Shown here piece by piece: positions 29,234 through 47,045 of a DNA stretch of 64,000 bases. The notes beneath the pieces were generated by a model. The model did no database searches. It saw only the letters and a program-made list of their open reading frames with translations, and was not told the origin of the DNA. Position 1 is the first letter of the stretch, and every line of letters begins with the position of its first letter. Source of the DNA: Escherichia virus TH32; the sequence record MT446405.1, one strand, 5' to 3'. Position numbers and translations under genes: made by a program.

Positions 29234-29881
29234 TTATCCTGTGGCCTGCATATTGCGTACATACTTCTGCTCTAATGAATAGATGAAGTCGGCGACAGTC
29301 AATCCCTTCGTGTGCCATTCATACATGGTGAAGCCTGTATTCAGGAAATAGCCGCGCACCTTGTCCATCGCTTCAGCTTCCTCCATTGAAGCCATCAGCG
29401 CCGCGACATTGTCATAAGAAGGCACAAATCCCTTCTTGCGTAGCGCATTGCGCAAATCCTTAGTTCGGAATCCAATCTTGCAGGGGTCATCACGACCCGT
29501 GGATGATGCGACCTTTGGAAGAGCAAGGAACTCTTTAAGGAACATTGCAATGTTCAAGTCGCCTGCGTCATCAAGCTTCTGGATTCGGTTGCGACCGCGA
29601 CCCTTGAATTCACTCGCACGAGGGTGAGAGCCAAAACAGTGCGCCCCTTCCAGTTTAGGGTCAATGATCATTACATCTTTCCCAATGCGCAACTCTACGT
29701 AGTAAAGATAAGACTCATCGACAAGCTTTGTGCGCTTGCAAGTGATTGAGTCCTTATCATAACCAAAGCCACGCAACACGGTTGAAATCATCCGGTTCAT
29801 TTCTTCGCCGTGAACATCACTTTCTTTGTTCAGTTCACCAAGATGTTGAAAGAATTTAGCGATGTTGATTGCTTTATTCAT
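29234..29881 (-). CDS. hypothetical protein
   Basis: 215 aa directly downstream of helicase gene. Confidence 0.4.
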   Translation of the reverse strand: MNKAINIAKFFQHLGELNKESDVHGEEMNRMISTVLRGFGYDKDSITCKRTKLVDESYLYYVELRIGKDVMIIDPKLEGAHCFGSHPRASEFKGRGRNRIQKLDDAGDLNIAMFLKEFLALPKVASSTGRDDPCKIGFRTKDLRNALRKKGFVPSYDNVAALMASMEEAEAMDKVRGYFLNTGFTMYEWHTKGLTVADFIYSLEQKYVRNMQATG

Positions 29882-31551
29882 CAGAATTCATCCTTATCTC
29901 TTCCCAAAGAACGTTTACGCTCAATAACCTTCTTCAAGAATTCAATATCTTCAGGGTCAGACTCATCGCGGATAAGATACGCTAAGATGGTCATCAAATC
30001 AGAAATGTATTCTCCTGCTTCATTCTTAATCAGCGGCGTAAAGTAACCGCGCTGGTTGCGATAGGTTGCAGGCTCAAAACCAAGCTTCGACATATGCGGC
30101 GCAAGGGTACGAGAGAAAGGCGACTTGCCGCACTTCGCTCTGAATCCCATAGCAATAGCACCACTGGTGATGTGCCAGCGTCCGCTGTGATGTCGGTCAT
30201 AAGGCGCGGTGATGACGACTTCAACAAGGTCGTTGTCCACCATCTCATCACGAATAACGCCGCGCGCACGTTCCATTTCGTTCTTACTAAACTCAGTAAG
30301 CATGCGAGATGTTTCACCAACAAACGCGTTGTAACCTGCTTCGCCGTGTTTTTCCATCCACGCAGCACACTCAGCCATCAACTGCCAAACGTCTTCTTTC
30401 AAAGTGGAAAGGTCAGCTTGGAAATCTTTCGACCAGTTCGGTTGCCCGTCCTTGTCAGCGAGTTGGCCAACAAAGATAGGGTACACACGACGGTTGCCCG
30501 TGTCGTCACGCTGCATGCCTGCGTATTCGTTGCCGTCCATGATCGCAATCCACTGGCGTGGTTTAACCTGAGTATCTTCAAATTTGAAGTCCAGGTCATC
30601 TTCCGTCTTAGTCAGGAATGCTTTCATGTTTTCGATGTCGGCCTTTTTAAAGCCTGTCATCTCGCCAACGTTCGCGATAATTGAGCGACCCGTAATAGCT
30701 CGCAAGAACGGGTTGAAGTTCTGCGCGGCTAAGTTCAACGGAATCGGTGTTGCGTGGCGGTCGTTCATAATAGCTTCGCAAAGCAGCTTGCTAAAATAAC
30801 TTTTCCCTGCGTTCTGGCCGCCGATGAGCGCGATAGAAATTGGCGCTTGACAGCCAGGGTTGGTCAGGCGGTTATAGAGCGATAGCCAAAAATACACACC
30901 GATTTGTCGGTTTAACTCTGTATCGAACGGTCGGAATAGCTCGATAAGGTATTTCTCGATGCGCGCAGTACCGTCCCATTCAGGCAGCTTCTTGTAGAAG
31001 AAGTCCATCAGGTCGTCGCGCTGATAACGCATGGCCCATTCCTTATAGGATTGAGCGACCTGACGTGAGTTTGGGTTAGACAGCCCTGCTGCGTCGACAG
31101 CGGCAACTATCTCTGTGACTTCCAAGGTACGGTCAGTGAATGTTTCGCCGCGATGGTCGACTAAGCGCCCACGAAAAGTATCTTTGTGAGGGAATGGAAC
31201 AATGCCACTTCCCTTATCAAACAACGCGTCGAAAACCGCATAACGGTTCATGTCACTCGTCCGGTCTGCCTGTAGAACGAAGTCATCTTTGGTAGGCTTG
31301 TAGTGAGGGAACTTGATTACCTGAAGTGAGGCGAGCAAGCGTGCTCTTTCAACCAAGTCTTCTTCACCGTAGCATTCCATGCGCTCTGAATCTTTTTCAA
31401 CAGCTTTATGTTGAAGGCTGATTTTAGCTCTGGTGCCTTGCTGCTCTGCTGCCTGCATTTCTTCCGAAACGCCTGCATCTTGAATTTCGTCAAAGATTGC
31501 ACCAAATTCATCACCTGTATCCTCTGGAAGATTGTCATTATTAATTGACAT
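29881..31551 (-). CDS. P-loop NTPase, D5/VirE-like primase-associated helicase (putative)
   Basis: Walker A IALIGGQNAGKSYF in C-terminal half, 556 aa; occurs with an AEP primase two genes upstream. Confidence 0.5.
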   Translation of the reverse strand: MSINNDNLPEDTGDEFGAIFDEIQDAGVSEEMQAAEQQGTRAKISLQHKAVEKDSERMECYGEEDLVERARLLASLQVIKFPHYKPTKDDFVLQADRTSDMNRYAVFDALFDKGSGIVPFPHKDTFRGRLVDHRGETFTDRTLEVTEIVAAVDAAGLSNPNSRQVAQSYKEWAMRYQRDDLMDFFYKKLPEWDGTARIEKYLIELFRPFDTELNRQIGVYFWLSLYNRLTNPGCQAPISIALIGGQNAGKSYFSKLLCEAIMNDRHATPIPLNLAAQNFNPFLRAITGRSIIANVGEMTGFKKADIENMKAFLTKTEDDLDFKFEDTQVKPRQWIAIMDGNEYAGMQRDDTGNRRVYPIFVGQLADKDGQPNWSKDFQADLSTLKEDVWQLMAECAAWMEKHGEAGYNAFVGETSRMLTEFSKNEMERARGVIRDEMVDNDLVEVVITAPYDRHHSGRWHITSGAIAMGFRAKCGKSPFSRTLAPHMSKLGFEPATYRNQRGYFTPLIKNEAGEYISDLMTILAYLIRDESDPEDIEFLKKVIERKRSLGRDKDEF

Positions 31552-31687
31552 TTAATCCTCCTGATACGGCTTTGTTATATTGTTGCATGGATATATCCTT
31601 TCAGGGTGCGGTAAATAAACGCCAGAAATCTGGCGTTGTATATTAATATAGTAAAACTCAATTTAAAGCAATATAACTGGTGAACTA

Positions 31688-32860: not shown

Positions 32861-33943
32861 CTATTTTATGCCACCTGCACGACGATTTATCATGTCAAGT
32901 TGATTCTCAATATAAGGCATGACGATTGCTTCAACAAAAGCAGTCCAACCTTTCTTGCCTTCCCCTTTCCGGTGACAGTCGTGGGCGCAACCGAACACAA
33001 ACTCATGTTCTGCACCAGGGATAGGGCCGCGAAAGTAAGCGCCATACGGGTCGCCGTTGGTGTGTTCTTCACCCCAAGGACAGATTATGCGGCACTTGCC
33101 TGACATATTCTCGATGACGTCGCCATCAGACCCTTCACCCATCTTGTTGCGCGCTAGAATTTGCTGGGCTATTTTATACCAAACAGCATCATACTTGTAT
33201 TCATCGACGTCAATTTGAATCTCACGCTTTTGCGGCATGACGACGTGAAAGCCAAATGCCTGACAAATGTCTTCGATGGTGTAGCGCAAGGAGTAGTCTG
33301 CATGGACAAGTCGGCAGCGGAACGGGTTGCCGTTCTCATCGACATATTTATAGGGGCCGTCGTGAGTCACACGCTTGTTGTTGATGCACCCAGGAACACG
33401 GCCCACGCGCGTTACGTCTTTAATCGTGTTGTCGCCGCCCTTCTTGAGTACCATGTTTACGAAAGACCCAAGGAATGCTTTGAACTGAATAAGATGGTCA
33501 ATCGGTTCTTTAAAGAAGTACCAAAGCTGGTGGTTGTTCGGTGAAGTCTCGACGATGACAGTCGGCTTCAGTCGCTCAAAAAAGAATTCCAAATCTAAAT
33601 CGCCTTTGGACCCTTTACCGTGACCGATGTCGTCGACCATCATCGCCATGCCGTGACCAAAGGCCGACTCTGTACGCCAGTATCGCATCTCACCCGTCTT
33701 TGGGTTGGGAGACTTACGCATTGAACTGATGCACGCATAGCCGTTTTGGTGCTGCATGAGCGGCTTGCCCAGCTTCCAAGGCTTAGGCCAAAAGCTACTG
33801 TTAATCTTCTTGCCGCGCTCATCGGTCTGCACCGTTGCTTCAGGCGCAAACACCGTCATGACGCGTTCATCTTCTGGAATGCCTCTTTGGAGTTCTGTTA
33901 AAAACTCTTCGATTATTTTTGCTTCTTCTCTTAAACTAGCCAT
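32861..33943 (-). CDS. archaeo-eukaryotic-type primase (prim-pol) domain protein
   Basis: Motifs MAMMVDDIG (DxD), SPNNHQLWYFF (sxH) and RVPGCINNK resemble AEP motifs I-III; first gene of early operon. Confidence 0.55.
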   Translation of the reverse strand: MASLREEAKIIEEFLTELQRGIPEDERVMTVFAPEATVQTDERGKKINSSFWPKPWKLGKPLMQHQNGYACISSMRKSPNPKTGEMRYWRTESAFGHGMAMMVDDIGHGKGSKGDLDLEFFFERLKPTVIVETSPNNHQLWYFFKEPIDHLIQFKAFLGSFVNMVLKKGGDNTIKDVTRVGRVPGCINNKRVTHDGPYKYVDENGNPFRCRLVHADYSLRYTIEDICQAFGFHVVMPQKREIQIDVDEYKYDAVWYKIAQQILARNKMGEGSDGDVIENMSGKCRIICPWGEEHTNGDPYGAYFRGPIPGAEHEFVFGCAHDCHRKGEGKKGWTAFVEAIVMPYIENQLDMINRRAGGIK

Positions 33944-33972
33944 CTTTCTTTCCTTCGGTGATCAATACCTGC

Positions 33973-34000
33973 AGTATAATATTGAGTGATACAAAGTCAA
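33973..34000 (-). promoter_or_regulatory. sigma70-like early promoter (minus strand)
   Basis: Minus strand TTGACT-N16-TATACT, about 30 nt upstream of 33943 start. Confidence 0.45.
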
Positions 34001-34036
34001 CAATATTTACCATTTAGTTCACAATTTCGATTTACT

Positions 34037-34065
34037 TTGCTTTATACTATATCTGCAATTATACT
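34037..34065 (+). promoter_or_regulatory. sigma70-like promoter (plus strand, divergent)
   Basis: TTGCTT-N17-TATACT. Confidence 0.45.
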
Positions 34066-34103
34066 ATCAGAAAATATTTCCGCACTAACAAAGGTCGCCT
34101 GAA

Positions 34104-34430
34104 ATGAACGAAAAAGATACGAAGCAACGCGAACGTGCAACACACGTCGGCATCGTTGAGTCCTTCCTTAATACCCGAATGAACTCAAGCCTAACAATCA
34201 TGCGATTCCTGGGTCAACCAGACAGAATCAAATTTATTTTTGCCGCAAATCCGGTATCGCTGTACATCCCTGTTGAATCCATGGCGTACTTAGTGCGCGA
34301 CGAGAAAGGATGGAAGATACCAAACACAACTGTTTTCTTCAGCCATGTTGATGGTGAGATGTTTGAACGAAAAGAAGATTGCCATTTTATTCCAGTATAT
34401 CTGGACCTTGACAGCGTAGTGGAGTTATAA
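34104..34430 (+). CDS. hypothetical protein
   Basis: 108 aa. Confidence 0.4.
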   Translation: MNEKDTKQRERATHVGIVESFLNTRMNSSLTIMRFLGQPDRIKFIFAANPVSLYIPVESMAYLVRDEKGWKIPNTTVFFSHVDGEMFERKEDCHFIPVYLDLDSVVEL

Positions 34431-35614
34431 TGAACATTCCAGAATTTAATGATGAGCCAGTGATTCAGTTTAACGCGCAACAAATCGATGCCATCGAGAA
34501 GGCCGTTGCATGGTACAAGCGATTGCAGGACGGTAAAACGACGAAGCGTGTGTTTTTCATTGCTGGCTATGCAGGGACTGGTAAAACTTCTATTGCTCGC
34601 GAGATTGTGCGCCGCTGTGTCGGTGAGTACGGAGCTATCTATATTGCGCCGACCGGAAAGGCTGCAAGCCGATTAAAGCAAAAAGGCTGTCGTGGCGCTA
34701 AGACCCTTCACCAGTTCATCTATAACGTGCGCGGCGTAAATGACGACAATGAGCCAATCTTTTCGAGGAAGTCAAAGCTGGATGAAAGGCCGCACCTTGT
34801 TGTCCTCGATGAAGCGTCGATGGTTGGCGAGTGGGACACAGAGCGCCTTCTTGATCACCGCATCCCTGTGCTGGCATTAGGCGACATTGGACAAGTCCCT
34901 CCGGTAAAAGCCGCCGCCTACTTTACTGAAGATGCCGTTGACGTGCTGTTAACCGAAATCATGCGGCAAGGGAAAGAGTCCAATATAATCCGCGCCTCCT
35001 TCTTCGTGCGCCAAGGCAACCGCCTTCCTCCGCGTGAATACGATGACGTCAAAGTATTGGCAGAATCGCCGCGCGTTACTGCATTGAAGAAATTCATGGG
35101 CGAAGATGATCAAATTATTTGCTCCTATAATAGCACCAAAGATAAATGGAATTCATTATTACGGCAAGTGAGCGGACGTATAACGCCAATGCCAGGAATC
35201 GGCGAGAAAGTTATTTGCACCTTCAACCAGCACGGGCCAGGATTCTGTAATGGCGAGCAAGGGATTGTTATTAGCTATGAACCAGTGCCGGACTTTGAAA
35301 GGGATGAAGACGAGTCGAATGAAATAATGTATGTCAACTTGCGTTCATTAACTGATGGTAAAGATATAAAGGTGAAGATCAATCCTCTTTCCTTCTCTAC
35401 TGATCAGGAAGTGCGCAAAGAAGCGCAACGCGCTGTTGGCGGGATGGACTATGGCTATGTAATCACGGTGCACAAATCGCAAGGCAGCGAGTGGGACAAT
35501 GTGTGCGTGCTGGAAGAAATCTTGCGCGGCGTTCCGTACTCCAAGATGATGTACACCGCAATCACCCGCGCTAAGAAGAATCTGACCGTGTACCGTGATT
35601 TGAAAGCGCGTTAA
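34430..35614 (+). CDS. RecD/Dda-like superfamily 1 DNA helicase
   Basis: Walker A GYAGTGKTS, Walker B VVLDEASMV, motif VI VITVHKSQGSEWDNV. Confidence 0.85.
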   Translation: MNIPEFNDEPVIQFNAQQIDAIEKAVAWYKRLQDGKTTKRVFFIAGYAGTGKTSIAREIVRRCVGEYGAIYIAPTGKAASRLKQKGCRGAKTLHQFIYNVRGVNDDNEPIFSRKSKLDERPHLVVLDEASMVGEWDTERLLDHRIPVLALGDIGQVPPVKAAAYFTEDAVDVLLTEIMRQGKESNIIRASFFVRQGNRLPPREYDDVKVLAESPRVTALKKFMGEDDQIICSYNSTKDKWNSLLRQVSGRITPMPGIGEKVICTFNQHGPGFCNGEQGIVISYEPVPDFERDEDESNEIMYVNLRSLTDGKDIKVKINPLSFSTDQEVRKEAQRAVGGMDYGYVITVHKSQGSEWDNVCVLEEILRGVPYSKMMYTAITRAKKNLTVYRDLKAR

Positions 35615-35774
35615 TGTTGACGTAAATTTACGAAAAATAAAACTGAAAATCAGTTTAATTAAAGTGGCATTGCCGCCATAGTTTTTAGTTGCTACTGGCG
35701 GCGACTGAAGGCATAATTAAGTTATCCCAAACGGGGGAATATAAAATAAACTAATTTATTTAAGGACTGTGAAC

Positions 35775-36614
35775 ATGGCCGAAGCAATCAAAGTATTATC
35801 TAAAGAAGAAAAACAAGCAGCTGCAGCAGAACGTCGTCGCGTGGCTGAAGAGAAACGCCTGGCTAAAAAGAAAGAAGCCGAAGAAAAACGCCAGAAGCGT
35901 GAGCAGGAAAAACAAGCCAAGCGTGAAGAAGCTGCGCTGAAACGCAAGCAGGCTGCTGATGAGAAGGCTCAGAAGCGTGCTGAAGAAGCGGCTAAGAAAG
36001 CTAAAGAGCGTGCAGAAAAGGCTGCTGCTAAGAAAGCAGAGCGTGAAGCCGCTAAAGCAGCAAAAGAAATCGAAAAGGCAAAGGCTAAAGAAGAAGCCAA
36101 GCGCCTGAAAGCTGAACAAGCTGCTGCTAAGAAAGCAGAGCGTGATCAAGCCCGTGCTGCAGCGAAGGCCGAAAAAGAAAAGGCCAAAGAAGAAGCTAAA
36201 GCGAAACGCAAGGCAGAGCGTGAAGCTGCTAAGATTGCGGCGAAAGAAGCTGCAGAACAGCAGAAAGAACAGCGCAAGAAAGAAGCTGAAGAGCGTCGCA
36301 AAGCGATTGCAGAGCGTAAAGCCGCCAAGAAAGCTAACGGTCAGCGTCGCGCTAAAGCAACTCACTTTGTTTACACCGGAAACGGCCTGAGCCAGCCGCA
36401 AGAGCATTCCACCCGTGGACGCGTTCTGGCGGCGATCAAAGAAGGCGAAATCGGTCAGCCGCAGTCTATCGACGAGCTGGGTGAAAAAGTTAAAGATCAG
36501 CTGTTTGGCGCTTCCGTTCGCTCTTACCTGAGCAAGCTGGAAGAGATGGGCCACATCGAGTTCATCGATGTTGAATCCAATGACGATGCCGAAGACGGTG
36601 ATCAAGCGGAATAA
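35775..36614 (+). CDS. Lys/Ala/Glu-rich repeat protein with globular C-terminal domain
   Basis: About 190 aa of KEEAEEKRQKREQEKQAKREEAALKRKQ...-type low complexity, then a 90 aa non-repetitive tail; antisense ORF 35796..36605 judged an artefact. Confidence 0.6.
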   Translation: MAEAIKVLSKEEKQAAAAERRRVAEEKRLAKKKEAEEKRQKREQEKQAKREEAALKRKQAADEKAQKRAEEAAKKAKERAEKAAAKKAEREAAKAAKEIEKAKAKEEAKRLKAEQAAAKKAERDQARAAAKAEKEKAKEEAKAKRKAEREAAKIAAKEAAEQQKEQRKKEAEERRKAIAERKAAKKANGQRRAKATHFVYTGNGLSQPQEHSTRGRVLAAIKEGEIGQPQSIDELGEKVKDQLFGASVRSYLSKLEEMGHIEFIDVESNDDAEDGDQAE

Positions 36615-36642: not shown

Positions 36643-36669
36643 GACCCACACTTGTTGTGGGTCTTTTTT
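36643..36669 (+). terminator. rho-independent terminator
   Basis: GACCCACA-cttgt-TGTGGGTC followed by TTTTTT. Confidence 0.7.
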
Positions 36670-39100: not shown

Positions 39101-39969
39101 GCATTAAAAACAGCGAAATCTTAAACGTATTCGACCTTGACGGAACGCTGTTTGATGACCGTTGGCGCTTAGACCGCATCAAGGTGGCAGGTCCGTTGTC
39201 AGACTATGATGACTATCACAGCGGTATTGGTTATGATCAGTTCTATCCTCACATTGCATCAGCAGTAGAGGCTGCATCTCTTCGCGGTGAGGCGGTTGAA
39301 TATTGGACTGCAAGACCAGAAAAATACAGACAAGTGACTTTTGAGCGTCTGGACAATGTTTTCCCTTTTGATGAATTTACAATCAAGATGAGAGACTCTG
39401 GCGACAAACGTCCATCAACTATTATGAAATCTGCATGGCTATCGCACGCTTTGCGGCACGGCGATTATCGAATCATCAATGTATTCGACGACCGACAAGA
39501 CGTACTCGCGCGGATGCAAGATGAAGCATTGTATTATAACTCCGTTGCTCAAAATAAAATCGCTTTTACATTTAATCTTTGCAAAGCAGGTGAAGTGGTG
39601 CAACAATTAGCAATTGATCCAAGCGCAACAGGGCAAGAAGATACTAAGGCTGTGGAAGTTGAACAATCTCCGGCAACTGCCGCCGATATTCTTGATGCGA
39701 TGGCCGCGACCTTCCGTGAGCGCAACGCCGTTTATGGCGATAACGCTGTGATGGTGGGCCAGGTGATGCAAGTTCTCTTCCCTAATGGCGTCACGTTGAA
39801 AACGCCGGAAGACTACCACATGTGGCACCTCTTCGAGCTTAAGATTGTCAAGCTTACACGCTTCGCAATCAGCGGCCTGAAGCACGAAGACTCTATACAC
39901 GATGATGGTGTTTACAGCGCCATGTGTGAACGTCTTGTGAACACCCATAATATTAATTTCAATAAATAG
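39097..39969 (+). CDS. HAD-superfamily phosphatase domain protein (nucleotidase candidate)
   Basis: Motif I VFDLDGTLFDD; motif IV-like INVFDDRQD; extra C-terminal domain of about 120 aa. Confidence 0.6.
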   Translation: MSIKNSEILNVFDLDGTLFDDRWRLDRIKVAGPLSDYDDYHSGIGYDQFYPHIASAVEAASLRGEAVEYWTARPEKYRQVTFERLDNVFPFDEFTIKMRDSGDKRPSTIMKSAWLSHALRHGDYRIINVFDDRQDVLARMQDEALYYNSVAQNKIAFTFNLCKAGEVVQQLAIDPSATGQEDTKAVEVEQSPATAADILDAMAATFRERNAVYGDNAVMVGQVMQVLFPNGVTLKTPEDYHMWHLFELKIVKLTRFAISGLKHEDSIHDDGVYSAMCERLVNTHNINFNK

Positions 39970-39970
39970 T

Positions 39971-39998
39971 TTACTTGTGCGTTTCGATGAGTTATATT
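39971..39998 (+). promoter_or_regulatory. sigma70-like promoter with dyad symmetry around -10
   Basis: TTACTT-N16-TATATT; inverted repeat arms 39980-39991 / 40002-40013; downstream TCATCGAAACGAA box. Confidence 0.4.
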
Positions 39999-40034
39999 TA
40001 TCTCATCGAAACGAAGTCCAAAAAGGATAAATAA

Positions 40035-40718
40035 ATGAAAAAGGTAATTGTTGTAACAGGTGCCAATTCCGGTCTTGGTAAATCTATTTTTGACACCCTT
40101 GGCGCTTACGGTCACGAAGTCGTCGGAATCGATTTAGAGAACGGCTATGACATTCGTAACGCAAAACAGATGAAAGAACTTCTTAGCGGTTACGACGTAG
40201 AAGGCTTGATCAACTGTGCTGGCGTAAACTCTAACAACTGGTTTGAAGACGTCGATTATGAAGAGTTTAATCGCGTTATGCATACTAACGCATTCTCTTT
40301 CGTCAACACAACACAGGCTGCGTTGAAAAGTCTTGTCGATAATAAAGGCTTTGTTATTAACATTGTCTCTAACGCCGCGCATATTCCTATGACGTCCAGT
40401 TTGTGCTATAATGCATCCAAGGCCGCTGCGCTTATGATCACTAAGCAGATGGCGCACGAGCTTACGCCTAAATACGGTATTACGGTATTCTCTATTAGTC
40501 CGAACAAGTTGCGCGGCACTGGCATGTCTAAACAGATTGAAGATGCTGTTTGTGCAACTCGCGGGTGGACCCCTGAGTATGCCGCTGAATACCAGAAAAA
40601 GGCATTGATGAACGGATTGGAGACTGAGCCGCAAGTAATTGCTGACTTCATTCGCCATATCTTAATTACGGGCGCATGGCGCTTTATGTCTGGTACTGAT
40701 ATTCCATTTGGGAAATAA
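40035..40718 (+). CDS. short-chain dehydrogenase/reductase (SDR)
   Basis: TGANSGLGKS cofactor motif, NAG-like segment, catalytic YNASK (YxxxK). Confidence 0.8.
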   Translation: MKKVIVVTGANSGLGKSIFDTLGAYGHEVVGIDLENGYDIRNAKQMKELLSGYDVEGLINCAGVNSNNWFEDVDYEEFNRVMHTNAFSFVNTTQAALKSLVDNKGFVINIVSNAAHIPMTSSLCYNASKAAALMITKQMAHELTPKYGITVFSISPNKLRGTGMSKQIEDAVCATRGWTPEYAAEYQKKALMNGLETEPQVIADFIRHILITGAWRFMSGTDIPFGK

Positions 40719-40721
40719 ATC

Positions 40722-40937
40722 ATGAACAAAGCCTGGTTAGCGGTGATTGGTCTGGTCCTTCTGGTTGTATTGGGATACACTATCAAATTTGAAGTTCCAA
40801 ATCCTGCTGAGCCTGACAAAAAGATTGTCGTTGAAGTACCAGGCGCGAAAGGGGAATTACCAAAACCTAAATTCGAAGTGGTAACGCCTGCGCCTGAAAA
40901 ACCGCAGGACTCTGATAACACCGTAATCAATAAGTGA
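40722..40937 (+). CDS. small membrane-anchored Pro-rich protein
   Basis: N-terminal TMD (AWLAVIGLVLLVVLGY) then Pro/Lys-rich tail. Confidence 0.4.
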   Translation: MNKAWLAVIGLVLLVVLGYTIKFEVPNPAEPDKKIVVEVPGAKGELPKPKFEVVTPAPEKPQDSDNTVINK

Positions 40938-41070
40938 GATTATGGAAGAAGAATTTAACATCCCTGGTCTGGATGAAGAAAAAGACTATGCTGCTGAAGT
41001 AGTCAGCAAAGAAGAAACTCATGAAGCCGACAACGTTTGCGGCGATGCTTGTAAAATCTAAGGAAACAAA

Positions 41071-41622
41071 ATGCCACATTTTAAAATTGAACAAATCGCC
41101 CTGTCAATTCCAGATGCTCAGCGCGCACAGGATTTCTTGGCTAAAATCGGCCTGACAGAATGGTTCCATGATCATGTTGTTGCTACTGGTCGCGTATTTG
41201 AAGCTGATGACTTTAAAGGTCGTCGCGACGATTGCACCAATGAAGCTGACTTGCGCTTCAACTATCAGGCTGGCAACGGTACTGATGGCAGAGCTGGTAA
41301 GCCTCTTGAGCTTGAAATCCTTGACTACACAATGGGCTGCAACTGGATTAACGAAAACATCGAATATATCGATGCGCATGACAATCAGGTCAGCCACCTT
41401 GGCATGCACGTGACTGCCGCTGAACTTGCTGAATGGCGTAAGTTCTTTAAAGAAGAAGGTATTCAGGTTGCACAGGAAGTTGTAACTGACTCTCATACCA
41501 ACCCGAACATTGCTGGTCAACGTCGTTACAACTATGTGATCTTTGATACGCGTGAAATCATCGGCGTTGATTTGAAGTTTATCGTGCGCTTGAATCAAGA
41601 CGGTACTCCGTACACCGTATAA
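41071..41622 (+). CDS. VOC/glyoxalase-like fold protein (putative)
   Basis: N-terminal IEQIALSIPDAQRAQDFLAKIGL resembles the first beta-alpha-beta unit of glyoxalase/bleomycin-resistance proteins; weak. Confidence 0.3.
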   Translation: MPHFKIEQIALSIPDAQRAQDFLAKIGLTEWFHDHVVATGRVFEADDFKGRRDDCTNEADLRFNYQAGNGTDGRAGKPLELEILDYTMGCNWINENIEYIDAHDNQVSHLGMHVTAAELAEWRKFFKEEGIQVAQEVVTDSHTNPNIAGQRRYNYVIFDTREIIGVDLKFIVRLNQDGTPYTV

Positions 41623-41638: not shown

Positions 41639-41663
41639 GGCCGTCCTAATGGGCGGCCTTTTT
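41639..41663 (+). terminator. rho-independent terminator
   Basis: GGCCG-tcctaatgg-GCGGCC followed by TTTTT. Confidence 0.55.
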
Positions 41664-41676: not shown

Positions 41677-42219
41677 GTGTTATTTCTCCCTTATGACTTC
41701 GAAACAACCGGATTGACCGTGCACCCGAAAGCGCCGCTTGGGATGCAGCCGCGCCCTATTGAATTTGCAGGTCTGTTGACAGACGGCAAAGAGATTCTTG
41801 AAACGTTTGAATTCATAATTAATCCTGAAATCGTGATTGAAGAAATTATCACAAAGATTACCGGATTAACAAATGAAGATATTGAGTGCAATCCACCGTT
41901 CATCAATTTCGTCCCGCAGCTAAAAGAAATATTCAAGAAGACTGATGCAACTATCGCGCATAACCATGCGTTCGATAAAAACATTCTTGATTATGCACTA
42001 CAGCGCGAAGGACTTACGCTTGATGATGTTAATTTTCCAGAAATAAACATATGTACAGTTGAGCAAACCTTGCCTATTTTTGGCCGAAGAGTTAAGCTTC
42101 AAGAGCTGTATGAATTATATTTCGGAAAATATGAACAGAAGCACCGTGCATTAGACGACGTAATATTACTGCACAAAGTCTGCCAACAAATTGGTGTATA
42201 TGACATCTGGAGTAAATAA
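41677..42219 (+). CDS. DnaQ-like 3'-5' exonuclease (DEDDh)
   Basis: GTG start; Exo I YDFETTGL, Exo II IAHNHAFDKNIL, Exo III HRALDDVILL. Confidence 0.75.
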   Translation: MLFLPYDFETTGLTVHPKAPLGMQPRPIEFAGLLTDGKEILETFEFIINPEIVIEEIITKITGLTNEDIECNPPFINFVPQLKEIFKKTDATIAHNHAFDKNILDYALQREGLTLDDVNFPEINICTVEQTLPIFGRRVKLQELYELYFGKYEQKHRALDDVILLHKVCQQIGVYDIWSK

Positions 42220-45116
42220 TGTTTCCACAATTGAGAGTTCGCAGCGGTTACACGTTCAAAGAAGTTTATGGACGGCACCCTGAAATTATAGCACGGCTCA
42301 AAGAGTTGGGCTGCGAAGTCGCGGCATTAGTTGATAACAACACATGGGGTCATGTCCGCTGGGAAAAGGAATGCCAGAAAAATTATATTAAGCCTATGTT
42401 TGGGATGGAGATTCCAATCATCGACCCTGATGCGGACCCGAAAAAGGGATTCAAACCGAAGGCTTGGATTCTTGCGCTTGATTTAAAATCTTTCTACAAC
42501 GCAACCACGCTTGCAACCAAAAAGGGCGGCTTAACCCGTGCAGAGTTCGGTGCGCTTGATGGCGTAGTTAAATTCTGTGGCGGTGCCGTGGAGCTGTTGC
42601 GGCCAGAGGACTATGACTATATAGACGTCAACCCATCATCGTTCCTTTTGGCAAAGCGCCAGGTATTGGCTCATCGCGCAGGAGGAAGGCCGCTGGTTTT
42701 AACCGGATACAATCACATGCCTTCACCTGAGCACGTTGACTTTGCTTATGCTTGGGAAGTGCGCGACACGGTTAAGCCGCACTGCATCGTAAGCGATGAA
42801 GAGTTGCGGAGTCAACTAAAAGGTATTCTTACAGAAGACGAGCTTGCACAGGCAACTTCAAATGCCATTGACATCGCAAATGGCATAGTCGGGCTTGACC
42901 TTAAACTGCGCAAGGCTCCGATTATTCACCTTGCAGGCGACATGGTAAAACTTGCTCGTGAGGGGATGGAGTACCGTCTAAAAGCAGGTCACATCAAAGA
43001 ATGGACTCAGGAATATGAGGACCGCTTCAACGAAGAAATTCATCAGATTCAGCTGAAAGATTTCGACTCATACTTTCTGGTGGTAGCGGACCTTGTACGA
43101 TTCGCAAAAACAAAAATGCTCGTCGGTCCTGCGCGCGGCTCATCGGCTGGTTCACTGGTTTGTTATTGCTTAGGCATCACGGAAGTGGACCCAATCCCGT
43201 ATAAGCTGCTGTTTGCCCGATTCATCGACGTAAGCCGCGCCGACCTTCCTGACATCGACATCGACTTTGAAGATACCAAACGCTATATGGTGTTTGATTA
43301 TCTTAAAGAGAAATACGGCGAAATGAACGTTGCAAAGCTTGGCAACATCAACACGCTTAAGGCCAACTCAGTAATGGCTCAAGTTGGTAAGAAGTTCAAC
43401 ATTGGATACCACGAAACAGCCAACATTAAAAACGCACTGCTTGAATACTCATCCGGTGACGCCCGTTATGGTCACGGCCTGGAGGATACCTTTGCAACAA
43501 CGACCACGGGTCAAGAGTTCGTGGCTAAATATCCTGATGCCGCGCGTTGCATGGGTGACCTTGAGATTCACCCGTCCCACACAGGTGTTCACGCAGCGGG
43601 AATCATTGTGTGTAATGACCCAATCTCTGATTACTGTACTGTAACTGCAGAAGGGATTGCGCAAATCGATAAGCCTGACAGCGAATACCTCAACCTTTTG
43701 AAGCTTGATGCGCTGGGCCTTCGTACTCTCGGCATTATTTCTGATACAGGCGTTATTGATGCTGAAACGCTCTACGGAATCAAGCTTGATGATCAAAGCG
43801 TCCTTGACATTCTTAACGAAAACAAGATGTCAGGCATCTTCCAGTTTGAAGGTGATGCTGTACGTTCAGTAACAAACTTTGTGCACGTCGACAACTTTAA
43901 CAAAATCGACAACCTGACGGCTTTGGGTCGACCTGGCCCGTTGTCATCCGGTATGGCCCAGAAATACATTGAACGCGCGGCAGGGCGTGCGCCGATTGAA
44001 TACGACGTGCCGCAGCTTGAGCCGTACTTAAAAGAGACTTACGGCGTGTTTCTTTACCAAGAGCAAATCATGGCCGTGGTTAAAGAGATTGGTTCATTTG
44101 ACTGGGCGAAAACGTCAGCTGTACGTAAGGCGATGTCAGGCCGTAAGGGTGAGGAATACTTTAACAAGCTTGGCGAGGACTTTGTTGCAGGCGCAATCAA
44201 TAACGGCGTACCGGAAGCGGATGCAAGAAAGCTTTGGCAAGCGATGGCTACGTTCGGGTCATGGGGCTTTAACAAGTCACACTCCGTGTCATACGCGGTC
44301 GTGACCTACTGGACCTTGTGGCTTAAGCGACACTACCCGTTGGAATTTGCCGCTGCCTGCTTACGCGCTGCTAAGGACGAAGACCAGACGATTGCGATAT
44401 TACGTGAACTTGCAAAGGAAGGCGTGGATTATGTGCCAATCGACCCTGATCACTCTTCGATGAACTGGACCATCGCGAACGGAAAGCTAATCGGCGGCAT
44501 CATGAACGCGAAAGGGTACGGCATGGTGAAGGCGATGAAGTACATCGAAGCGCGTGAAGCCGGAACCTTAACGCAGAAACAAAAGGACGCATTGGCCAAT
44601 GCTGAAGTAAAATACGGCGACCTTACAGAGATGCACACAAAGTTCGGCTGGGCGTATAATGACCCGTATCTGATTGGGGTGACGTCCGGCGCTTCAATAC
44701 GCCAGATGAAGGAAGTCGGTGATGACGAGCGCGCAATAGTAATCGGCAAGTTGACAAAGAAGGTGCTTGCGGACGAGAACGAAGCAACACGCATCCGTAA
44801 ACGACTTGAGCGCGGCATCTATACAAAGCACGGCAAGCTTAAAAAGGGTCTTCAAGCTGATGGCCGCTACGCAGAGTTTGACCAGTACGGGAACAAGCTT
44901 GAGACTCAGTTCATCGACCTTATGTGCAAAGACGACTCGACCGACTCGCCAATGCGCTTCAGGATTCGTCCAGAGAAGTTCCAGAAGTACGGGAAGTACA
45001 TCGCTGAAAACGTCGGGAACGGCGCATTCTTCCTGATGAAAGGTCGTAAGCTTGAAGGCATTGACATGTTCATCGTTGACGTGATCAAACAGGTGTATCC
45101 AGATGGCAACAAATAA
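42219..45116 (+). CDS. DNA polymerase III alpha-type (C-family, DnaE-like) catalytic subunit
   Basis: GPARGSSAGSLVCYCLGITEVDP...PDIDIDF matches the DnaE palm signature GPGRGSxAGSLVAY...PDxDxDF; degenerate N-terminal PHP-like region; 965 aa. Confidence 0.9.
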   Translation: MFPQLRVRSGYTFKEVYGRHPEIIARLKELGCEVAALVDNNTWGHVRWEKECQKNYIKPMFGMEIPIIDPDADPKKGFKPKAWILALDLKSFYNATTLATKKGGLTRAEFGALDGVVKFCGGAVELLRPEDYDYIDVNPSSFLLAKRQVLAHRAGGRPLVLTGYNHMPSPEHVDFAYAWEVRDTVKPHCIVSDEELRSQLKGILTEDELAQATSNAIDIANGIVGLDLKLRKAPIIHLAGDMVKLAREGMEYRLKAGHIKEWTQEYEDRFNEEIHQIQLKDFDSYFLVVADLVRFAKTKMLVGPARGSSAGSLVCYCLGITEVDPIPYKLLFARFIDVSRADLPDIDIDFEDTKRYMVFDYLKEKYGEMNVAKLGNINTLKANSVMAQVGKKFNIGYHETANIKNALLEYSSGDARYGHGLEDTFATTTTGQEFVAKYPDAARCMGDLEIHPSHTGVHAAGIIVCNDPISDYCTVTAEGIAQIDKPDSEYLNLLKLDALGLRTLGIISDTGVIDAETLYGIKLDDQSVLDILNENKMSGIFQFEGDAVRSVTNFVHVDNFNKIDNLTALGRPGPLSSGMAQKYIERAAGRAPIEYDVPQLEPYLKETYGVFLYQEQIMAVVKEIGSFDWAKTSAVRKAMSGRKGEEYFNKLGEDFVAGAINNGVPEADARKLWQAMATFGSWGFNKSHSVSYAVVTYWTLWLKRHYPLEFAAACLRAAKDEDQTIAILRELAKEGVDYVPIDPDHSSMNWTIANGKLIGGIMNAKGYGMVKAMKYIEAREAGTLTQKQKDALANAEVKYGDLTEMHTKFGWAYNDPYLIGVTSGASIRQMKEVGDDERAIVIGKLTKKVLADENEATRIRKRLERGIYTKHGKLKKGLQADGRYAEFDQYGNKLETQFIDLMCKDDSTDSPMRFRIRPEKFQKYGKYIAENVGNGAFFLMKGRKLEGIDMFIVDVIKQVYPDGNK

Positions 45117-45525
45117 CCGTGAGCAGAAATACATATTCGTGCCTTTGAAGAAGCATTCAGAATCGGTATTGAAGCTTCAACGAATCGAGTCGATGACTGG
45201 TGATGGCGTGCCGGACGTAATCGGCACCAACCGGAAAGGGCGCGGCTTTTGGCTTGAAATGAAGTTCTTTGAATCGTGGCCTGCAAGGGCCACCACTGCA
45301 CCTTTCAGAAATGCATTTGAGAAAGGCCAATGCAGCTTCCTTTCTTCGTGGAATGATTGGCGATACCCATCATTCGTTTTGCTTAAGGTTGATTCTGAGA
45401 AGATGTTTTATTTAGTCCACCCTTCTATTGAATTAAAGCGTTATAATACTGCAGACGTTCAACGTGAGATAATCGTGAAGGGAACTATTCATCACATCAT
45501 CAAGTATTTAGAGGAATTGTCATGA
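45103..45525 (+). CDS. VRR-NUC domain nuclease
   Basis: GVPDVIGTNRKGRGFWLEMK (PD-(D/E)xK-like) plus downstream QCSFLSSW pattern. Confidence 0.6.
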   Translation: MATNNREQKYIFVPLKKHSESVLKLQRIESMTGDGVPDVIGTNRKGRGFWLEMKFFESWPARATTAPFRNAFEKGQCSFLSSWNDWRYPSFVLLKVDSEKMFYLVHPSIELKRYNTADVQREIIVKGTIHHIIKYLEELS

Positions 45526-47045
45526 AAACACAAGGAATGCGCCACCAATTATTGGCGCTTGATAAAGCAGGCCGCAGAAAATACTTTGCTTATTTTATGG
45601 AACAGGGTCTTGGTAAAACCTGGACTGCTTTGGCAGAGTTTGAAAAACACTTCGCCGCTGGCGCATTTGATGCCATGGTTGTCATCGCTCCTAACGGTGT
45701 CCACTCGAACTGGATTCGTCGTGAAGCACCAGAACACCTTTCCATTAAATGGATTGGTCATTACTGGCGCGGAAATGACAAGATGAAAACTAAAAAGGGT
45801 AAAGCCATTTGGGAGAAGATGTTTGCTGATCACTATCCTGAAGGTGAAGTGCCTGCGCGCATCTTCTCATTCAACATCGATACTGTCAACACACCAGTCG
45901 GTTATCAACACATCGAGTCTGTCCTGAAGAAGTACCGCTGTTTGATGATCATTGACGAATCGACGCGTATCAAAAATAACACAGCCAAACGCTCCATCAA
46001 GGTTGTAGAATTGGGACGGCTGGCAAAGGCCCGTCGCATACTTTCCGGCACGCCGCTGCCGCGCTCGCCTGCTGATATTTACATGCAGTATCACTTCCTT
46101 GAAGCTGGCTTGCTCGGCACCAAATCGTTCCGTGCATTCAACTCTGAATTCACAGTGCTGCTTGAAGCGCACGACCCAGAGATGCAGGCCATTCTCAAGA
46201 AAATCGGCGGCAACGGTTATGGCATTCCGCAAGTGCCGCGCAAAGACCAGTTTGGCCGACCGATGTACAAGAACCTTGACAAGCTTATCCGGCTGATGGA
46301 ACCGCACTATTTTCGTGCAACAAAAGCAGAATACTTGCCTGACCTTCCAGAGAAGGTGTACAAGTTTATTGACTTCGAGTTGTCGCCTAAGCAGCGCGAT
46401 GTATACGATGAACTCAAGAATGAGTACAACTATTTGATGGAATACAAGGGCGAAGAAGAAAACGTCAAGTTTGAGATGATCGCGTCGCGCACCAAGATGA
46501 AGCAGGTTACATCCGGCTTTGTCAAGGTGTATGATGAGATGGTCTACATGGAAGACAACCCACGCTTCACGGCCTTTAAGGATTATGTGGAAGGGGTGTT
46601 GGAAGACGACCCAGAGCGCAAATTCATCGTTTGGGCCATCTTTAAGGAAGAGATGAACCAGATTAAGGAATGGCTTGAGTCTGAAGGCGTGGTCACTGGT
46701 GTATACAACGGTGAAACATCAAAAGAGCAGCGCGAGTTCTTGATTGATGACTTCCAGAAAAACACAGTCGCGAATGGTGGAACACAGGTATTGGTTTGCC
46801 ACGCTGCAGCGGCAGGCATCGGCATCACACTTACCGCTGCTGACTTGGCAATCTATTATTCTTGCAACTATGACAATGAGTTGCGCAAGCAATCCGAAGA
46901 CCGAAATCACCGCATCGGCACCAAATCAAGCGTGTTGTATGTTGATTTTATTGGGGTTGATACCATCGACGAAGAAATTCAGCGTTCATTGAGTATGAAG
47001 TCTATGCTTGCTGATCACATCCTCGACGGCAAAAAGATGAATTAA
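45522..47045 (+). CDS. SNF2-family helicase
   Basis: Motif I EQGLGKTWT, motif II LMIIDESTRIKN, C-terminal helicase domain. Confidence 0.85.
   Translation: MKTQGMRHQLLALDKAGRRKYFAYFMEQGLGKTWTALAEFEKHFAAGAFDAMVVIAPNGVHSNWIRREAPEHLSIKWIGHYWRGNDKMKTKKGKAIWEKMFADHYPEGEVPARIFSFNIDTVNTPVGYQHIESVLKKYRCLMIIDESTRIKNNTAKRSIKVVELGRLAKARRILSGTPLPRSPADIYMQYHFLEAGLLGTKSFRAFNSEFTVLLEAHDPEMQAILKKIGGNGYGIPQVPRKDQFGRPMYKNLDKLIRLMEPHYFRATKAEYLPDLPEKVYKFIDFELSPKQRDVYDELKNEYNYLMEYKGEEENVKFEMIASRTKMKQVTSGFVKVYDEMVYMEDNPRFTAFKDYVEGVLEDDPERKFIVWAIFKEEMNQIKEWLESEGVVTGVYNGETSKEQREFLIDDFQKNTVANGGTQVLVCHAAAAGIGITLTAADLAIYYSCNYDNELRKQSEDRNHRIGTKSSVLYVDFIGVDTIDEEIQRSLSMKSMLADHILDGKKMN

Follow-up and report, generated by a model that had tools for sequence, protein, structure and literature searches.

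The closest described systems are the replication modules of Pbunavirus (PB1-like) phages and of other Wifcevirus phages (such as Bas98-101, WFC, vB_Eco4M-7 and FEC19), which have the same gene content and order, from ligase to helicase, as the locus analyzed here. This order is ligase, MazG, Pam3_gp34-like, DUF7307, SNF2, small nuclease, DnaE, DnaQ, PNKP-like, ThyX, oxidoreductase-like, K/A/E-rich protein and Dda-like, followed by the divergent primase and VapE helicase genes. The module has been described with the same functional reading for the Pbunavirus phage Banzai in a 2025 paper (PMC12390725), and it is documented that phages commonly pair an archaeo-eukaryotic primase (AEP) with an SF3 helicase and mix bacterial with archaeo-eukaryotic components (PMC4889955). 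The cluster D mycobacteriophage WaldoWhy shares DnaE, an AEP (Prim-Pol), a D5_N/DUF5906 SF3 helicase, SNF2, SDR, ThyX, an “oxidoreductase” and a resolvase with the phage studied here, and reached its mix of DnaE, Prim-Pol/D5_N/DUF5906 fusion and SNF2 independently. Its primase-helicase is fused and of the Prim-Pol/D5 type, whereas the RepB' and VapE types are separate here; its resolvase is RuvC-like, and the two polymerases agree in only about 37% of the core residues.

Positions 29881 to 47045 of the window (the whole stretch analyzed, 64,000 nucleotides of Escherichia virus TH32, MT446405.1) make up the module of DNA-replication genes in a Wifcevirus phage of E. coli, delimited by the stop codons of the VapE/VirE-like SF3 helicase gene on the minus strand and of the SNF2 gene on the plus strand (Table 1). 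The window is about 96% identical in sequence to Wifcevirus genomes already published. About 30 genomes of this genus, at 93-96% nucleotide identity, have the module annotated, the primase is present in 364 phage records, and the whole module is syntenic with that of Pbunavirus PB1 and with FoX7, MTx and Kyle. Compared to PB1, with 58-64% amino acid identity for polymerase and primase, there was no difference of kind: in Wifcevirus, additional small open reading frames separate the primase gene from the helicase gene, a further 7.5 kb or so of such frames follows downstream of the helicase, and there are SDR and glyoxalase-like genes, which are absent from PB1, while the PB1 DnaE is interrupted by a coiled-coil insert of some 60 aa. 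Every gene in the title of a sequence-only reading of this DNA was found where that reading had placed it, with profile support far above chance. That reading had left out the ThyX, HAD/PNKP-like phosphatase, SDR, glyoxalase-like and Rossmann oxidoreductase-like genes.

Table 1. Features of the replication module and the adjacent genes (positions in the window)
Feature	Position	Strand	Remarks
VapE/VirE-like SF3 (D5-type) helicase	29881..31551	-	556 aa; P-loop core at about residues 189-407
RepB'-type archaeo-eukaryotic primase (AEP)	32861..33943	-	360 aa; catalytic domain residues 40-237
Divergent intergenic region	33944..34103		160 nt, AT-rich; between primase operon (-) and Dda/polymerase operons (+)
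Dda/RecD2-like SF1B helicase	34430..35614	+	394 aa; annotated as Dda-like in relatives
Lys/Ala/Glu-rich low-complexity protein	35769..36614	+	281 aa; small C-terminal globular region, acidic tail
Rossmann (GxGxxG) flavin/NAD oxidoreductase-like protein	36749..37744	+	331 aa; conserved core gene; N-terminus MIIGGGLAGL
Nucleotide-metabolism block	38270..41622	+	
ThyX	38270-39100	+	Pfam Thy1 1.8e-29
HAD/PNKP-type phosphatase-like	39097-39969	+	HAD_PNKP 1.4e-8
Short-chain dehydrogenase (SDR)	40035-40718	+	adh_short 4e-32
71-aa open reading frame		+	in the block, between SDR and glyoxalase-like genes
Weak glyoxalase-like protein	41071-41622	+	Glyoxalase_4 2.3e-3
DnaQ/epsilon-like DEDDh 3'-5' exonuclease	41677..42219	+	180 aa; catalytic domain only
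C-family (DnaE-type) DNA polymerase	42219..45116	+	965 aa; degenerate PHP, palm, fingers, about 170 C-terminal residues
PD-(D/E)xK nuclease	45103..45525	+	140 aa; overlaps dnaE by 14 nt, SNF2 gene by 4 nt
SNF2-family ATPase/translocase	45522..47045	+	507 aa; SNF2-rel_dom 6e-22, Helicase_C 3.7e-11
DUF7307 (Pam3 gp33-like) protein	47618..48175	+	185 aa; coiled-coil N-terminus; PF23984 2.6e-37
Candidate single-stranded-DNA-binding protein	48235..49095	+	286 aa; disordered termini, OB-containing core, acidic tail
MazG-like gene	49668-50261		precedes ligase
ATP-dependent DNA ligase	50258..51235	+	325 aa; phrog_114 1.9e-41; annotated ligase in relatives

The intergenic region is likely a divergent promoter region. 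It contains the promoter-like sequence TTGACT-16-TATACT on the minus strand (34000-33973), and the minimum of the cumulative GC skew falls into it. No iterons were found in 33944..34103. On the plus strand, terminators were predicted at 36643-36663, following the Lys/Ala/Glu-rich gene, and at 41639-41658, where the nucleotide-metabolism block ends. The Lys/Ala/Glu-rich protein belongs to phrog_4765 (1.9e-84, unknown function) with counterparts in PB1, FoX7, MTx and Kyle. The oxidoreductase-like protein matched phrog_4828 (2e-148); none of its 1912 homologues has a Pfam domain, and a profile search against the PDB aligned only the dinucleotide-binding motif of amine oxidases (E about 0.2).

The profile searches that could have failed for the AEP and DnaE labels were run, and both labels passed strongly, the primase with 3.2e-36 to Pfam RepB_primase (PF16793). 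Its invariant motifs are D104-D105, ETSPxNxQxW and GGDNTxKD..R..R.P..NNK. The C-terminal part had no Pfam match and no demonstrable helix bundle but carries a conserved C288-x5-H294-x24-C319-x-H321(+C323/324) pattern (nt 32975-33082), a putative Cys/His motif that appears to be new. RepB' of RSF1010 (3H20/3H25) is in the same Pfam family and shares the acidic and ETSPxNYQxW motifs; it is a monomeric AEP whose primers are taken up by a C-family polymerase, as would also hold for the phage enzyme. In RSF1010 this polymerase is the host Pol III, and the partners of RepB' are RepA/RepC and this host enzyme; those of the phage primase are the SF3 helicase and the phage DnaE.

This kinship raises the question of whether the phage replicates by RSF1010-like strand displacement, with the primase, which might lay down DNA primers, acting only at particular origin hairpins (ssi-like sites). 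In such a scheme, synthesis would be continuous on both strands and no Okazaki fragments would arise, leaving the ligase to nick repair and recombination instead of lagging-strand joining. The passage on RSF1010 in PMC10250227, citing Geibel 2009, has RepB' priming downstream of a hairpin and replication in a leading-strand mode only. The closely related Bas101 genome has no annotated RNase H or flap nuclease, as this model would have it, and the window contains, away from the replication module, two homologous dyad elements of the type “iteron / AT-rich core / hairpin,” the cores of which are enclosed by inverted repeats forming 13- to 16-bp hairpins as single-stranded DNA (z scores -3 to -4.8). 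These elements appear to be new. One of them, however, coincides with the predicted physical genome end beside a putative small-terminase gene and may therefore be a packaging site. The direct similarity between the phage primase and the RepB' structures was confined to the ETSPxNYQxW motif (E 0.16-0.7), the C-terminal part is unlike RepB', and copying a 68-kb genome by displacement alone would put a very high demand on SSB. Strand displacement is considered unlikely.

The D5/VirE-like helicase proposed before was recovered with Pfam VapE-like_dom (1.6e-28) and DUF5906 (2.6e-4), and matched the SaPI VapE-like hexameric helicase 7PDS with 4e-11. The Walker A sequence GGQNAGKS and a GNRR motif were invariant in the homologue alignment; the N-terminal 188 or so and C-terminal 150 or so residues matched no known families. 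The phage protein and the self-loading SaPI Rep/VapE-like SF3 helicases have the P-loop core in common, but their N- and C-terminal domains are unrelated in sequence, and the phage primase is a separate RepB'-type gene. In SaPI, the origin is made up of iterons on either side of an AT-rich stretch.

Likewise predicted before, the RecD-like helicase had matches to AAA_30 (1.9e-22), AAA_19 and UvrD_C_2 (6e-13) and, under the cutoff of the model, to RecD2 (TIGR01448, 1.9e-34). This Dda-like SF1B enzyme, helped by SNF2, might move with the fork, leaving the VapE-like protein as origin-melting initiator and primase partner only. Both helicases are kept in every relative examined, and the Dda-like gene is transcribed in the same direction as the polymerase block. 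T4 Dda, however, is by textbook knowledge an accessory and not a replicative helicase. SaPI Rep proteins of the VapE type themselves act as replicative helicases in hexameric form (7PDS; PMC12390725), and an SF3 helicase beside an AEP primase is the usual phage replicative pair (PMC4889955), so that such a division of labor seems quite improbable.

The polymerase scored 3e-63 with DNA_pol3_alpha, 1e-37 with the finger domain and 474 bits with TIGR00594 (cutoff 434). The PDIDIDF motif reported earlier is encoded at nt 43248-43268, the catalytic residues D345, D347 and D497 are present, and residues 241-798 align to the Taq and E. coli alpha subunits (E 1e-84/-85). The PHP match was borderline (25-28 bits, cutoff 26.4); as the sequence-only reading had it, the domain is degenerate, an invariant RVR (PQLRVR unchanged in five genera) replacing the HxH motif, and it looks inactive. 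Residues 781-965 had no Pfam match, although the sequence pattern of the last 170 or so residues looks OB-like. The separate DEDDh proofreader was also verified (RNase_T 2.1e-21; several epsilon/PolC-exo NCBIfam models 1e-14 to 1e-19), with visible DxE, NxxFD and Hx4D motifs. The dnaQ stop and the dnaE start share 1 nt (TAATG), as in PB1, FoX7 and MTx, and overlapping stop and start codons and the order dnaQ-dnaE-nuclease-SNF2 are kept in five genera. DnaQ is predicted to be translationally coupled to DnaE, and SNF2 is likewise coupled to the nuclease.

With the E. coli Pol III core, the phage pair shares the inactive-type PHP, the three catalytic palm Asp residues, the fingers and a separate DEDDh proofreader, the gene of which adjoins the polymerase gene. 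Equivalog NCBIfam scores in this comparison were all far under cutoff, the polymerase is about 200 aa shorter than alpha with an unrecognizable C-terminus, and theta, tau, clamp and clamp-loader genes are missing. Lacking a clamp, DnaE should be poorly processive, which argues against an autonomous replisome; alternatively, an unrecognized phage processivity factor may exist. DnaE and DnaQ could borrow the host beta clamp and its loader, or act in repair or recombination-dependent synthesis, with most of the genome left to the host Pol III. No clamp or clamp loader is annotated in Bas101, the last 170 or so polymerase residues match no known domain, the tau-binding domain is absent, and the phage exonuclease has no counterpart of the C-terminal tether with which E. 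coli epsilon binds alpha. Against host dependence, the polymerase contains no convincing clamp-binding motif, since the QFIDLM stretch, which has no invariant Q, falls within what is probably an OB strand. That the polymerase is accompanied by a complete complement of helicase, primase, SSB and ligase argues for autonomy, and the polymerase is strictly conserved across genera (58-69% identity). Host dependence is therefore judged very unlikely.

Two further components lie outside 29881-47045. The “gp2.5-like SSB” holds as an SSB candidate, but its OB fold is closest to the phiC31/TG1 RDF-type phage SSB, a family for which single-stranded DNA binding was shown by experiment (PMC11795197); the DUF7307 gene always adjoins it in relatives. 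The ATP-dependent ligase was supported by its phrog match and a KVDG (KxDG) motif, with weak Pfam matches to OB_2 and A_M under cutoff. The T7 replisome (gp4, gp2.5, gp5) is similarly minimal and clamp-less. Its helicase-primase and its SSB each contact the polymerase through an acidic C-terminal tail that ends in Phe (PMC12339929). In the phage, the helicase ends in ...DKDEF, with the terminal Phe in about 41 of 43 complete homologues, and the acidic tail of the SSB candidate in ...DAEEF with an invariant Phe. This strictly conserved residue on both proteins appears to be a new feature and suggests, in view of the gp4/gp2.5 precedent, a shared docking partner for the two, probably the polymerase. 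The putative resemblance is one of organization, not of homology: the polymerases are of the A and C family, the helicases SF4 and SF3, the primases Toprim and AEP.

The SNF2 helicase was likewise found as proposed. The small nuclease had been labeled VRR-NUC, which is imprecise. There was no Pfam match even at E<=10; its predicted structure is that of a PD-(D/E)xK nuclease closest to the RecU/Hjc Holliday-junction resolvases (pLDDT 75, five sequences, medium confidence). The product is a probable Holliday-junction or branched-DNA resolvase.

By homology, the parts list comprises a helicase, a primase, DnaE, a DEDDh proofreader, a Dda-like helicase, SNF2 with nuclease, and a ligase. In an autonomous replisome, the VapE-like helicase would load itself at the origin and unwind it, as SaPI Rep proteins do, the AEP primase would make primers, and the DnaE-DnaQ pair would extend and proofread them without a phage-encoded clamp or clamp loader. 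The OB-fold protein would coat single-stranded DNA, and the ligase would seal nicks. The Dda-like helicase, SNF2 ATPase and resolvase-like nuclease may act ahead of packaging, remodeling and resolving intermediates that are branched or concatemeric.

The mixture of polymerase and primase lineages, called noteworthy in the sequence-only reading, is real but already annotated, already in print and common to hundreds of sequenced relatives. Given the identity to Wifcevirus genomes, the synteny with PB1, the 2025 paper and a mycobacteriophage with the same mix, the finding is therefore ordinary. The replication and recombination module, organized as two divergent transcription units, is likely the phage's own, vertically inherited within the Wifcevirus/Pbunavirus-like myophage group.

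The span 29881-47045, for which the sequence-only reading had proposed a composite replisome, is bounded exactly by two stop codons, that of the VapE-like helicase gene and that of the SNF2 gene. All genes named in the heading of that proposal, namely an AEP primase and a D5-like helicase on one strand and a DnaE-type polymerase with a separate DnaQ exonuclease plus RecD-like and SNF2 helicases on the other, were confirmed by Pfam, NCBIfam and PDB searches. Two more of its listed genes, the SSB candidate and the ligase, are located beyond this range.

Positions of the predicted genes and non-coding features; coordinates are those of the window unless another genome is named
Feature	Position	Strand	Remark
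First dyad element	5540-5840		non-coding gap
Non-coding region	18000-18690		about 700 nt
15-nt tandem array	18277-18328		in the preceding region
Terminal repeat	about 18200-21871		probable
ATAGTGCAAAT array	20329-21535	+	1.2 kb
Putative small terminase gene	21037-21525	-	
Second dyad element	21730-22110		non-coding gap
AT-rich palindrome	21845-21888		in second dyad element
VapE-like helicase	29881-31551	-	predicted SF3 helicase
Primase	32861-33943	-	predicted RepB'-family AEP
Primase/Dda intergenic region	33944-34103		divergent genes
Dda/RecD2-like helicase	34430-35614	+	
Lys/Ala/Glu-rich protein	35769-36614		281 aa
Metabolic genes	36749-41622, 49668-50261		
Rossmann oxidoreductase-like protein	36749-37744		
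Signal peptide ORF	37810-38256		inside replication module
DnaQ	41677-42219	+	predicted DEDDh exonuclease
DnaE	42219-45116	+	predicted C-family polymerase
PDIDIDF motif	43248-43268		in DnaE
Nuclease	45103-45525	+	140 aa
SNF2	45522-47045	+	
Walker A ORF	47383-47631		82 aa
SSB candidate	48235-49095	+	
Ligase	50258-51235	+	
Signal peptide ORF	51411-51953		near lysis genes
PB1 (L004) dnaE gene	12058-15165		PB1 coordinates
PB1 (L004) non-coding region	28594-29511		PB1 coordinates
FoX7 (L005) iteron region	27579-27890		FoX7 coordinates

The DnaE protein matched DNA_pol3_alpha (PF07733, 3e-63) and the finger domain PF17657 (1e-37), its TIGR00594 score was 474.5 bits at an NCBIfam cutoff of 434, and its residues 241-798 aligned with the alpha subunits of Taq and E. 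coli at about 1e-85 in the PDB search. The catalytic residues D345 and D347 of PDIDIDF and D497 of KLDALGL line up with those of both alpha subunits. The product is predicted to be a DnaE-type polymerase with fingers and a Pol-beta-like palm containing the three catalytic aspartates, as in the proposed bacterial-type C-family enzyme. The N-terminal PHP match was borderline in Pfam, with 25.3 bits for the whole protein and 27.9 bits for the N-terminus alone at a cutoff of 26.4. The proposed designation of this part as degenerate PHP-like is appropriate because RVR takes the place of the canonical first HxH in each of the five genera that were compared; the domain is very probably present in a form that does not bind metal. 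Beyond about residue 798, no alignment to any solved alpha subunit was obtained, residues 781-965 had no Pfam match, and a tau-binding domain is absent. A C-terminal OB fold, a tau-binding domain and a clamp-binding motif define the alpha subunits of bacterial holoenzymes, not the polymerase family as such. The last 170 residues or so match no profile and contain the pattern F-x-D-L-M-x-DDS-x-D-x-P-x-RFRI...G-x-F/W-F-L-x-K-G...DMF, which resembles the OB domain of bacterial alpha subunits. A QFIDLM stretch (residues 896-901) was considered as a binding motif for the host beta clamp and dropped, since its Q varies and the stretch resembles an OB strand. The DnaE of Pseudomonas phage PB1 differs by an insertion of about 60 aa with coiled-coil character, which is absent from the protein in the window. 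The proposed separate proofreader was recovered as well: DnaQ matched RNase_T (PF00929, 2.1e-21) and contains YDFETTG (DxE), HNHAFDKNIL (NxxxFD) and HRALDD (Hx4D), which predicts an epsilon-like DEDDh exonuclease with Exo I to III on an RNase_T fold.

The primase is encoded by a gene separate from that of the VapE-like helicase, not by a fusion. It matched RepB_primase (PF16793) at 3.2e-36, with 125 bits compared to a cutoff of 24.3; the acidic DD, SPxNYQxW and D...R...RxPG..N.K motifs are invariant in the five genera, and the SPxNYQxW motif aligns with the RepB' structures 3H20 and 3H25. The protein is predicted to be a RepB'-family primase with a PriS-like catalytic domain, and the label AEP was correct because RepB' is recognised as a monomeric primase of the archaeo-eukaryotic type (PMC10250227). 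Its C-terminal 120 aa, which gave neither a Pfam nor a PDB sequence match, contain an invariant C288-x5-H294-x24-C319-x-H321 pattern plus C323/324 that looks like a zinc-binding element; the corresponding region of RepB' is a helix bundle.

For the VapE-like helicase, the match to PF05272 (1.6e-28, 100 bits, cutoff 25), the match to the hexameric SaPI helicase 7PDS (4e-11, PDB search) and the invariant GxQxxGKS, VGEM and GNRR motifs argue for a VapE/VirE-type SF3 helicase with a P-loop NTPase core (Walker A and B, arginine finger), in line with the VirE/D5-like P-loop helicase proposed. DUF5906 remained under its cutoff of 27.6 with 22 bits. D5_N, Prim-Pol and Toprim were not detected at an E value of 0.01 or below in the whole protein or of 10 or below in the N-terminal 190 aa, and the N- and C-termini had no match in Pfam. 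The helicase encoded on the other strand, which had been called RecD-like, has an AAA_30/AAA_19 motor and UvrD_C_2; it is a member of the SF1B RecD/Dda family but not a RecD2 orthologue, because its score of 119 bits in the RecD2 model is under the equivalog cutoff of 500 (NCBIfam). The SNF2 protein is predicted to be an ATPase with both lobes, as indicated by Pfam scores of 78.5 bits for the SNF2-related N lobe (cutoff 24.9) and 43.7 bits for Helicase_C (cutoff 23.5). The putative ATP-dependent ligase is supported by phrog_114 (1.9e-41) and the nucleotidyltransferase motif I sequence KVDG (KxDG); both Pfam ligase domains gave weak matches under their cutoffs, at 21 and 18 bits, and the gene is outside the range proposed for the module.

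The label VRR-NUC for the 140-aa nuclease could not be maintained. This ORF had no Pfam match even at an E value of 10, and solved VRR-NUC structures were matched neither by phmmer in the PDB nor by a profile of nine sequences against the PDB; the sole profile match, the FLI1 PNT domain, was spurious. Relatives of the ORF retain a PD-(D/E)xK signature as E29, D38, E52-x-K54 and Q76. When 1.8 billion representatives were scanned in full with HMMER, 319 relatives were obtained. Among 142 relatives scanned with Pfam, VRR_NUC appeared weakly in five, and RecU and Hjc in one each. Membership in VRR-NUC (PF08774) is ruled out by these negative searches, with weak matches only in 5 of 142 relatives. 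Comparison of an AlphaFold2 model (pLDDT 75, pTM 0.73) with known structures placed RecU nearest (10.6), followed by archaeal Hjc (9.3, 8.7 and 8.6), Hje (8.0) and the phage VRR-NUC structures 4QBN and 4QBO (6.2 and 6.1). In this model, the E...D...ExK signature is located on a restriction-endonuclease-like fold of the PD-(D/E)xK superfamily. A relationship to VRR-NUC is retained at superfamily level. The protein is best called a PD-(D/E)xK nuclease with a predicted junction-resolvase-like fold and no assigned family, and the label "Holliday junction resolvase" of its Pbunavirus homologue (PMC12390725) agrees with this reading of the fold.

The designation of the SSB candidate as gp2.5-like likewise does not hold as homology, since neither a sequence nor a fold match to T7 gp2.5 was found; a functional analogy is kept. 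The C-terminal ends are ...DAEEF in the SSB candidate and ...DKDEF in the VapE-like helicase. The terminal Phe is present in all 39 diverse homologues of the SSB candidate, also in PB1, Xanthomonas phage FoX7, Serratia phage MTx and Pantoea phage Kyle, and in about 41 of the 43 complete homologues of the helicase from IMG/VR and phage genomes, where the preceding residues vary freely (...GGF, ...EDF, ...DAF, ...GSF). The T7 helicase-primase gp4 binds the polymerase by an acidic tail ending in Phe. The same is true for the T7 SSB gp2.5 (PMC12339929), and the parallel with both T7 tails suggests that the helicase and the SSB candidate share one docking site. The ligase tail ...DMEYF was dropped as a third docking tail because conservation of its Phe does not extend to PB1, FoX7, MTx or Kyle.

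Other genes are found in and near the module. The metabolic genes within it encode a Rossmann oxidoreductase-like protein, ThyX, a HAD/PNKP-like phosphatase, an SDR, a glyoxalase-like protein and MazG. None of 1912 homologues of the oxidoreductase-like protein has a Pfam domain, and Pfam, NCBIfam and PDB searches with single sequences and profiles revealed for its function only a dinucleotide-binding motif. An "oxidoreductase" and ThyX, partly with an SDR, also adjoin DnaE in the actinophages WaldoWhy and Poultress, and the N-terminus of the Poultress oxidoreductase matched the profile of the protein from the window with 91% hhalign probability. A role of this metabolic block in nucleotide or DNA modification is worth considering because Wifcevirus phages are reported to be considerably resistant to restriction (PMC11990801). 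The gene of a protein in which Lys/Ala/Glu repeats predominate over a small domain at the C-terminus and an acidic tail is located between those of the Dda-like helicase and the oxidoreductase-like protein in all relatives examined; its product is possibly a DNA-coating or scaffold protein. Two ORFs without a family match have clear N-terminal signal peptides and are predicted to be secreted or periplasmic. Another ORF contains the Walker A sequence GPRNSGKTT, is weakly similar to the N-termini of thymidylate kinases or AAA proteins and is too short for a complete NTPase.

The polymerase gene and the entire 19-kb stretch match about 30 published Wifcevirus myophages of E. coli and Shigella, among them Bas98-101, WFC, WFH, SP13, vB_Eco4M-7, FEC19, ECML-117 and Mansfield, with 93-96% nucleotide identity over 97-98% of the length. 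The annotation of Bas101 shows this gene set with its order unchanged, and the window is a Wifcevirus genome because of both observations. Full-length relatives of the primase were counted in 364 phage records; Pseudomonas phages account for 294 of these, with about 64% identity. The corresponding number of phage records for DnaE-like polymerases is 1374. The order of the module is the same in PB1, FoX7, MTx and Kyle, including the overlapping dnaQ/dnaE/nuclease/SNF2 junctions. A 2025 paper on the Pbunavirus Banzai describes an equivalent set, with homologues of Pol III alpha and epsilon, a primase, a ligase, a SaPI-like self-loading helicase, a Dda-like helicase, an SNF2-like translocase and a resolvase (PMC12390725). 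According to a survey of viral replication proteins, AEP primases usually go with SF3 helicases, phages include a VirE-like group within SF3, and bacterial-type and archaeo-eukaryotic-type parts are often intermixed (PMC4889955). The mixture of lineages, which had been regarded as noteworthy, had been described before and is ordinary in this group of phages. The unrelated mycobacteriophage WaldoWhy also combines DnaE with a Prim-Pol/D5_N/DUF5906 fusion, SNF2, an SDR, ThyX and a resolvase; Microbacterium phage Poultress was dropped as a second case of DnaE plus AEP because its primase is of the Toprim type.

An origin of replication was sought in the divergent primase/Dda intergenic region, which contains promoter-like hexamers only and no iterons or hairpins, so that this candidate was dropped; the minimum of the GC skew at this site is uninformative because transcription changes direction at the same place. 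Two non-coding gaps contain homologous dyad elements, each about 300 nt long. Both elements have inverted ATCCGTATC/GATACGGAT arrays around a core of 96-116 nt with 82% A+T, and the 10 copies of ATACGGAT in the window, compared to about 2 expected, are all within these elements. The flanking inverted repeats fold as single-stranded DNA into hairpins of 13-16 bp (z of -3 to -4.8), with hairpins at 5756-5822 and 21915-21987, and Bas101 has both elements in the same two gaps. This layout would fit a SaPI-like or RSF1010-like origin. In FoX7, iterons with a different sequence, GGCGTTATTTAA, occur in both orientations with interspersed AT-rich stretches immediately downstream of the VapE-like helicase gene. 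Such a position is typical of an origin, and SaPI origins are situated likewise with respect to rep. Downstream of the VapE helicase gene, PB1 has about 900 nt of non-coding DNA, in which a G/T-rich part gives way abruptly to a C/A-rich one around an AT-rich centre (about 28900-29010).

The second dyad element is at least a predicted genome-end site, as follows from three observations. The first nucleotide of the Mansfield record corresponds to window position 21871, in the centre of the AT-rich palindrome; the Mansfield annotation makes this position the left end of a direct terminal repeat of 3673 bp, a PhageTerm prediction; and the adjacent ORF is annotated in Mansfield as small terminase subunit, although PHROG places it only in a family of unknown function. 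The ECO71P1 record ends at about 21861. The second element may be a terminase site, and the window probably spans the physical genome end. The first element is 16 kb away, upstream of the gene for the head-maturation protease. Inside the putative terminal repeat, 10 copies of ATAGTGCAAAT, one of them as ATAGTGCGAAT, extend across coding ORFs, among them the putative small-terminase gene, and could be a protein-binding array, for instance a pac-like site or an operator. The non-coding region at the other predicted boundary of the repeat contains three copies of ACGAAGGG and two of the 25-nt repeat CTTTATAAAACAACGACTTACGCGA besides a tandem array.

Homology provides the catalytic equipment of the module, from which the following order of events is the most likely. 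The VapE-like helicase would load itself and open the origin like SaPI Rep proteins, the RepB'-type primase would lay primers, and DnaE with the translationally coupled DnaQ would elongate and proofread. RepB' of RSF1010 gives its primers to the host Pol III, also a C-family enzyme. The SSB candidate, as an OB-fold protein, would cover single-stranded DNA and the ligase close the nicks. The Dda-like helicase, SNF2 and the coupled resolvase-like nuclease could deal with stalled forks, recombination-dependent replication and the branched concatemers that a genome with terminal repeats should produce. The annotation of the closely related Bas101 genome names neither a clamp or clamp loader nor an RNase H or flap nuclease. 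A joint reading, tentative and rather doubtful as a whole, assumes a clamp-less DnaE replisome with T7-style Phe docking that starts at the dyad elements and connects initiation with the genome end. The conserved C-terminal Phe residues of the SF3 helicase and the OB-fold SSB may then dock on one common partner, and the VapE-like helicase may melt the dyad DNA, with the primase acting at the hairpins as at ssiA/ssiB of RSF1010. If true, the dyad element at the genome end would link replication initiation to the formation of the terminal repeat.

As a finding, the module adds little, with gene set, order and functional reading already public for Wifcevirus and Pbunavirus. Its value is that of a pointer to an unstudied DnaE/AEP/SF3 replisome, none of whose proteins has been characterised. 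Relatives in Pbunavirus belong to the phages that are used most in therapy against P. aeruginosa. For Wifcevirus phages, an exceptionally short latent period has been reported (PMC11990801). The conserved tails with a terminal Phe, the primase Cys/His motif and both dyad elements are starting points from which one could learn how a C-family polymerase manages without a clamp, where replication begins in these phages and where their genome ends are cut.
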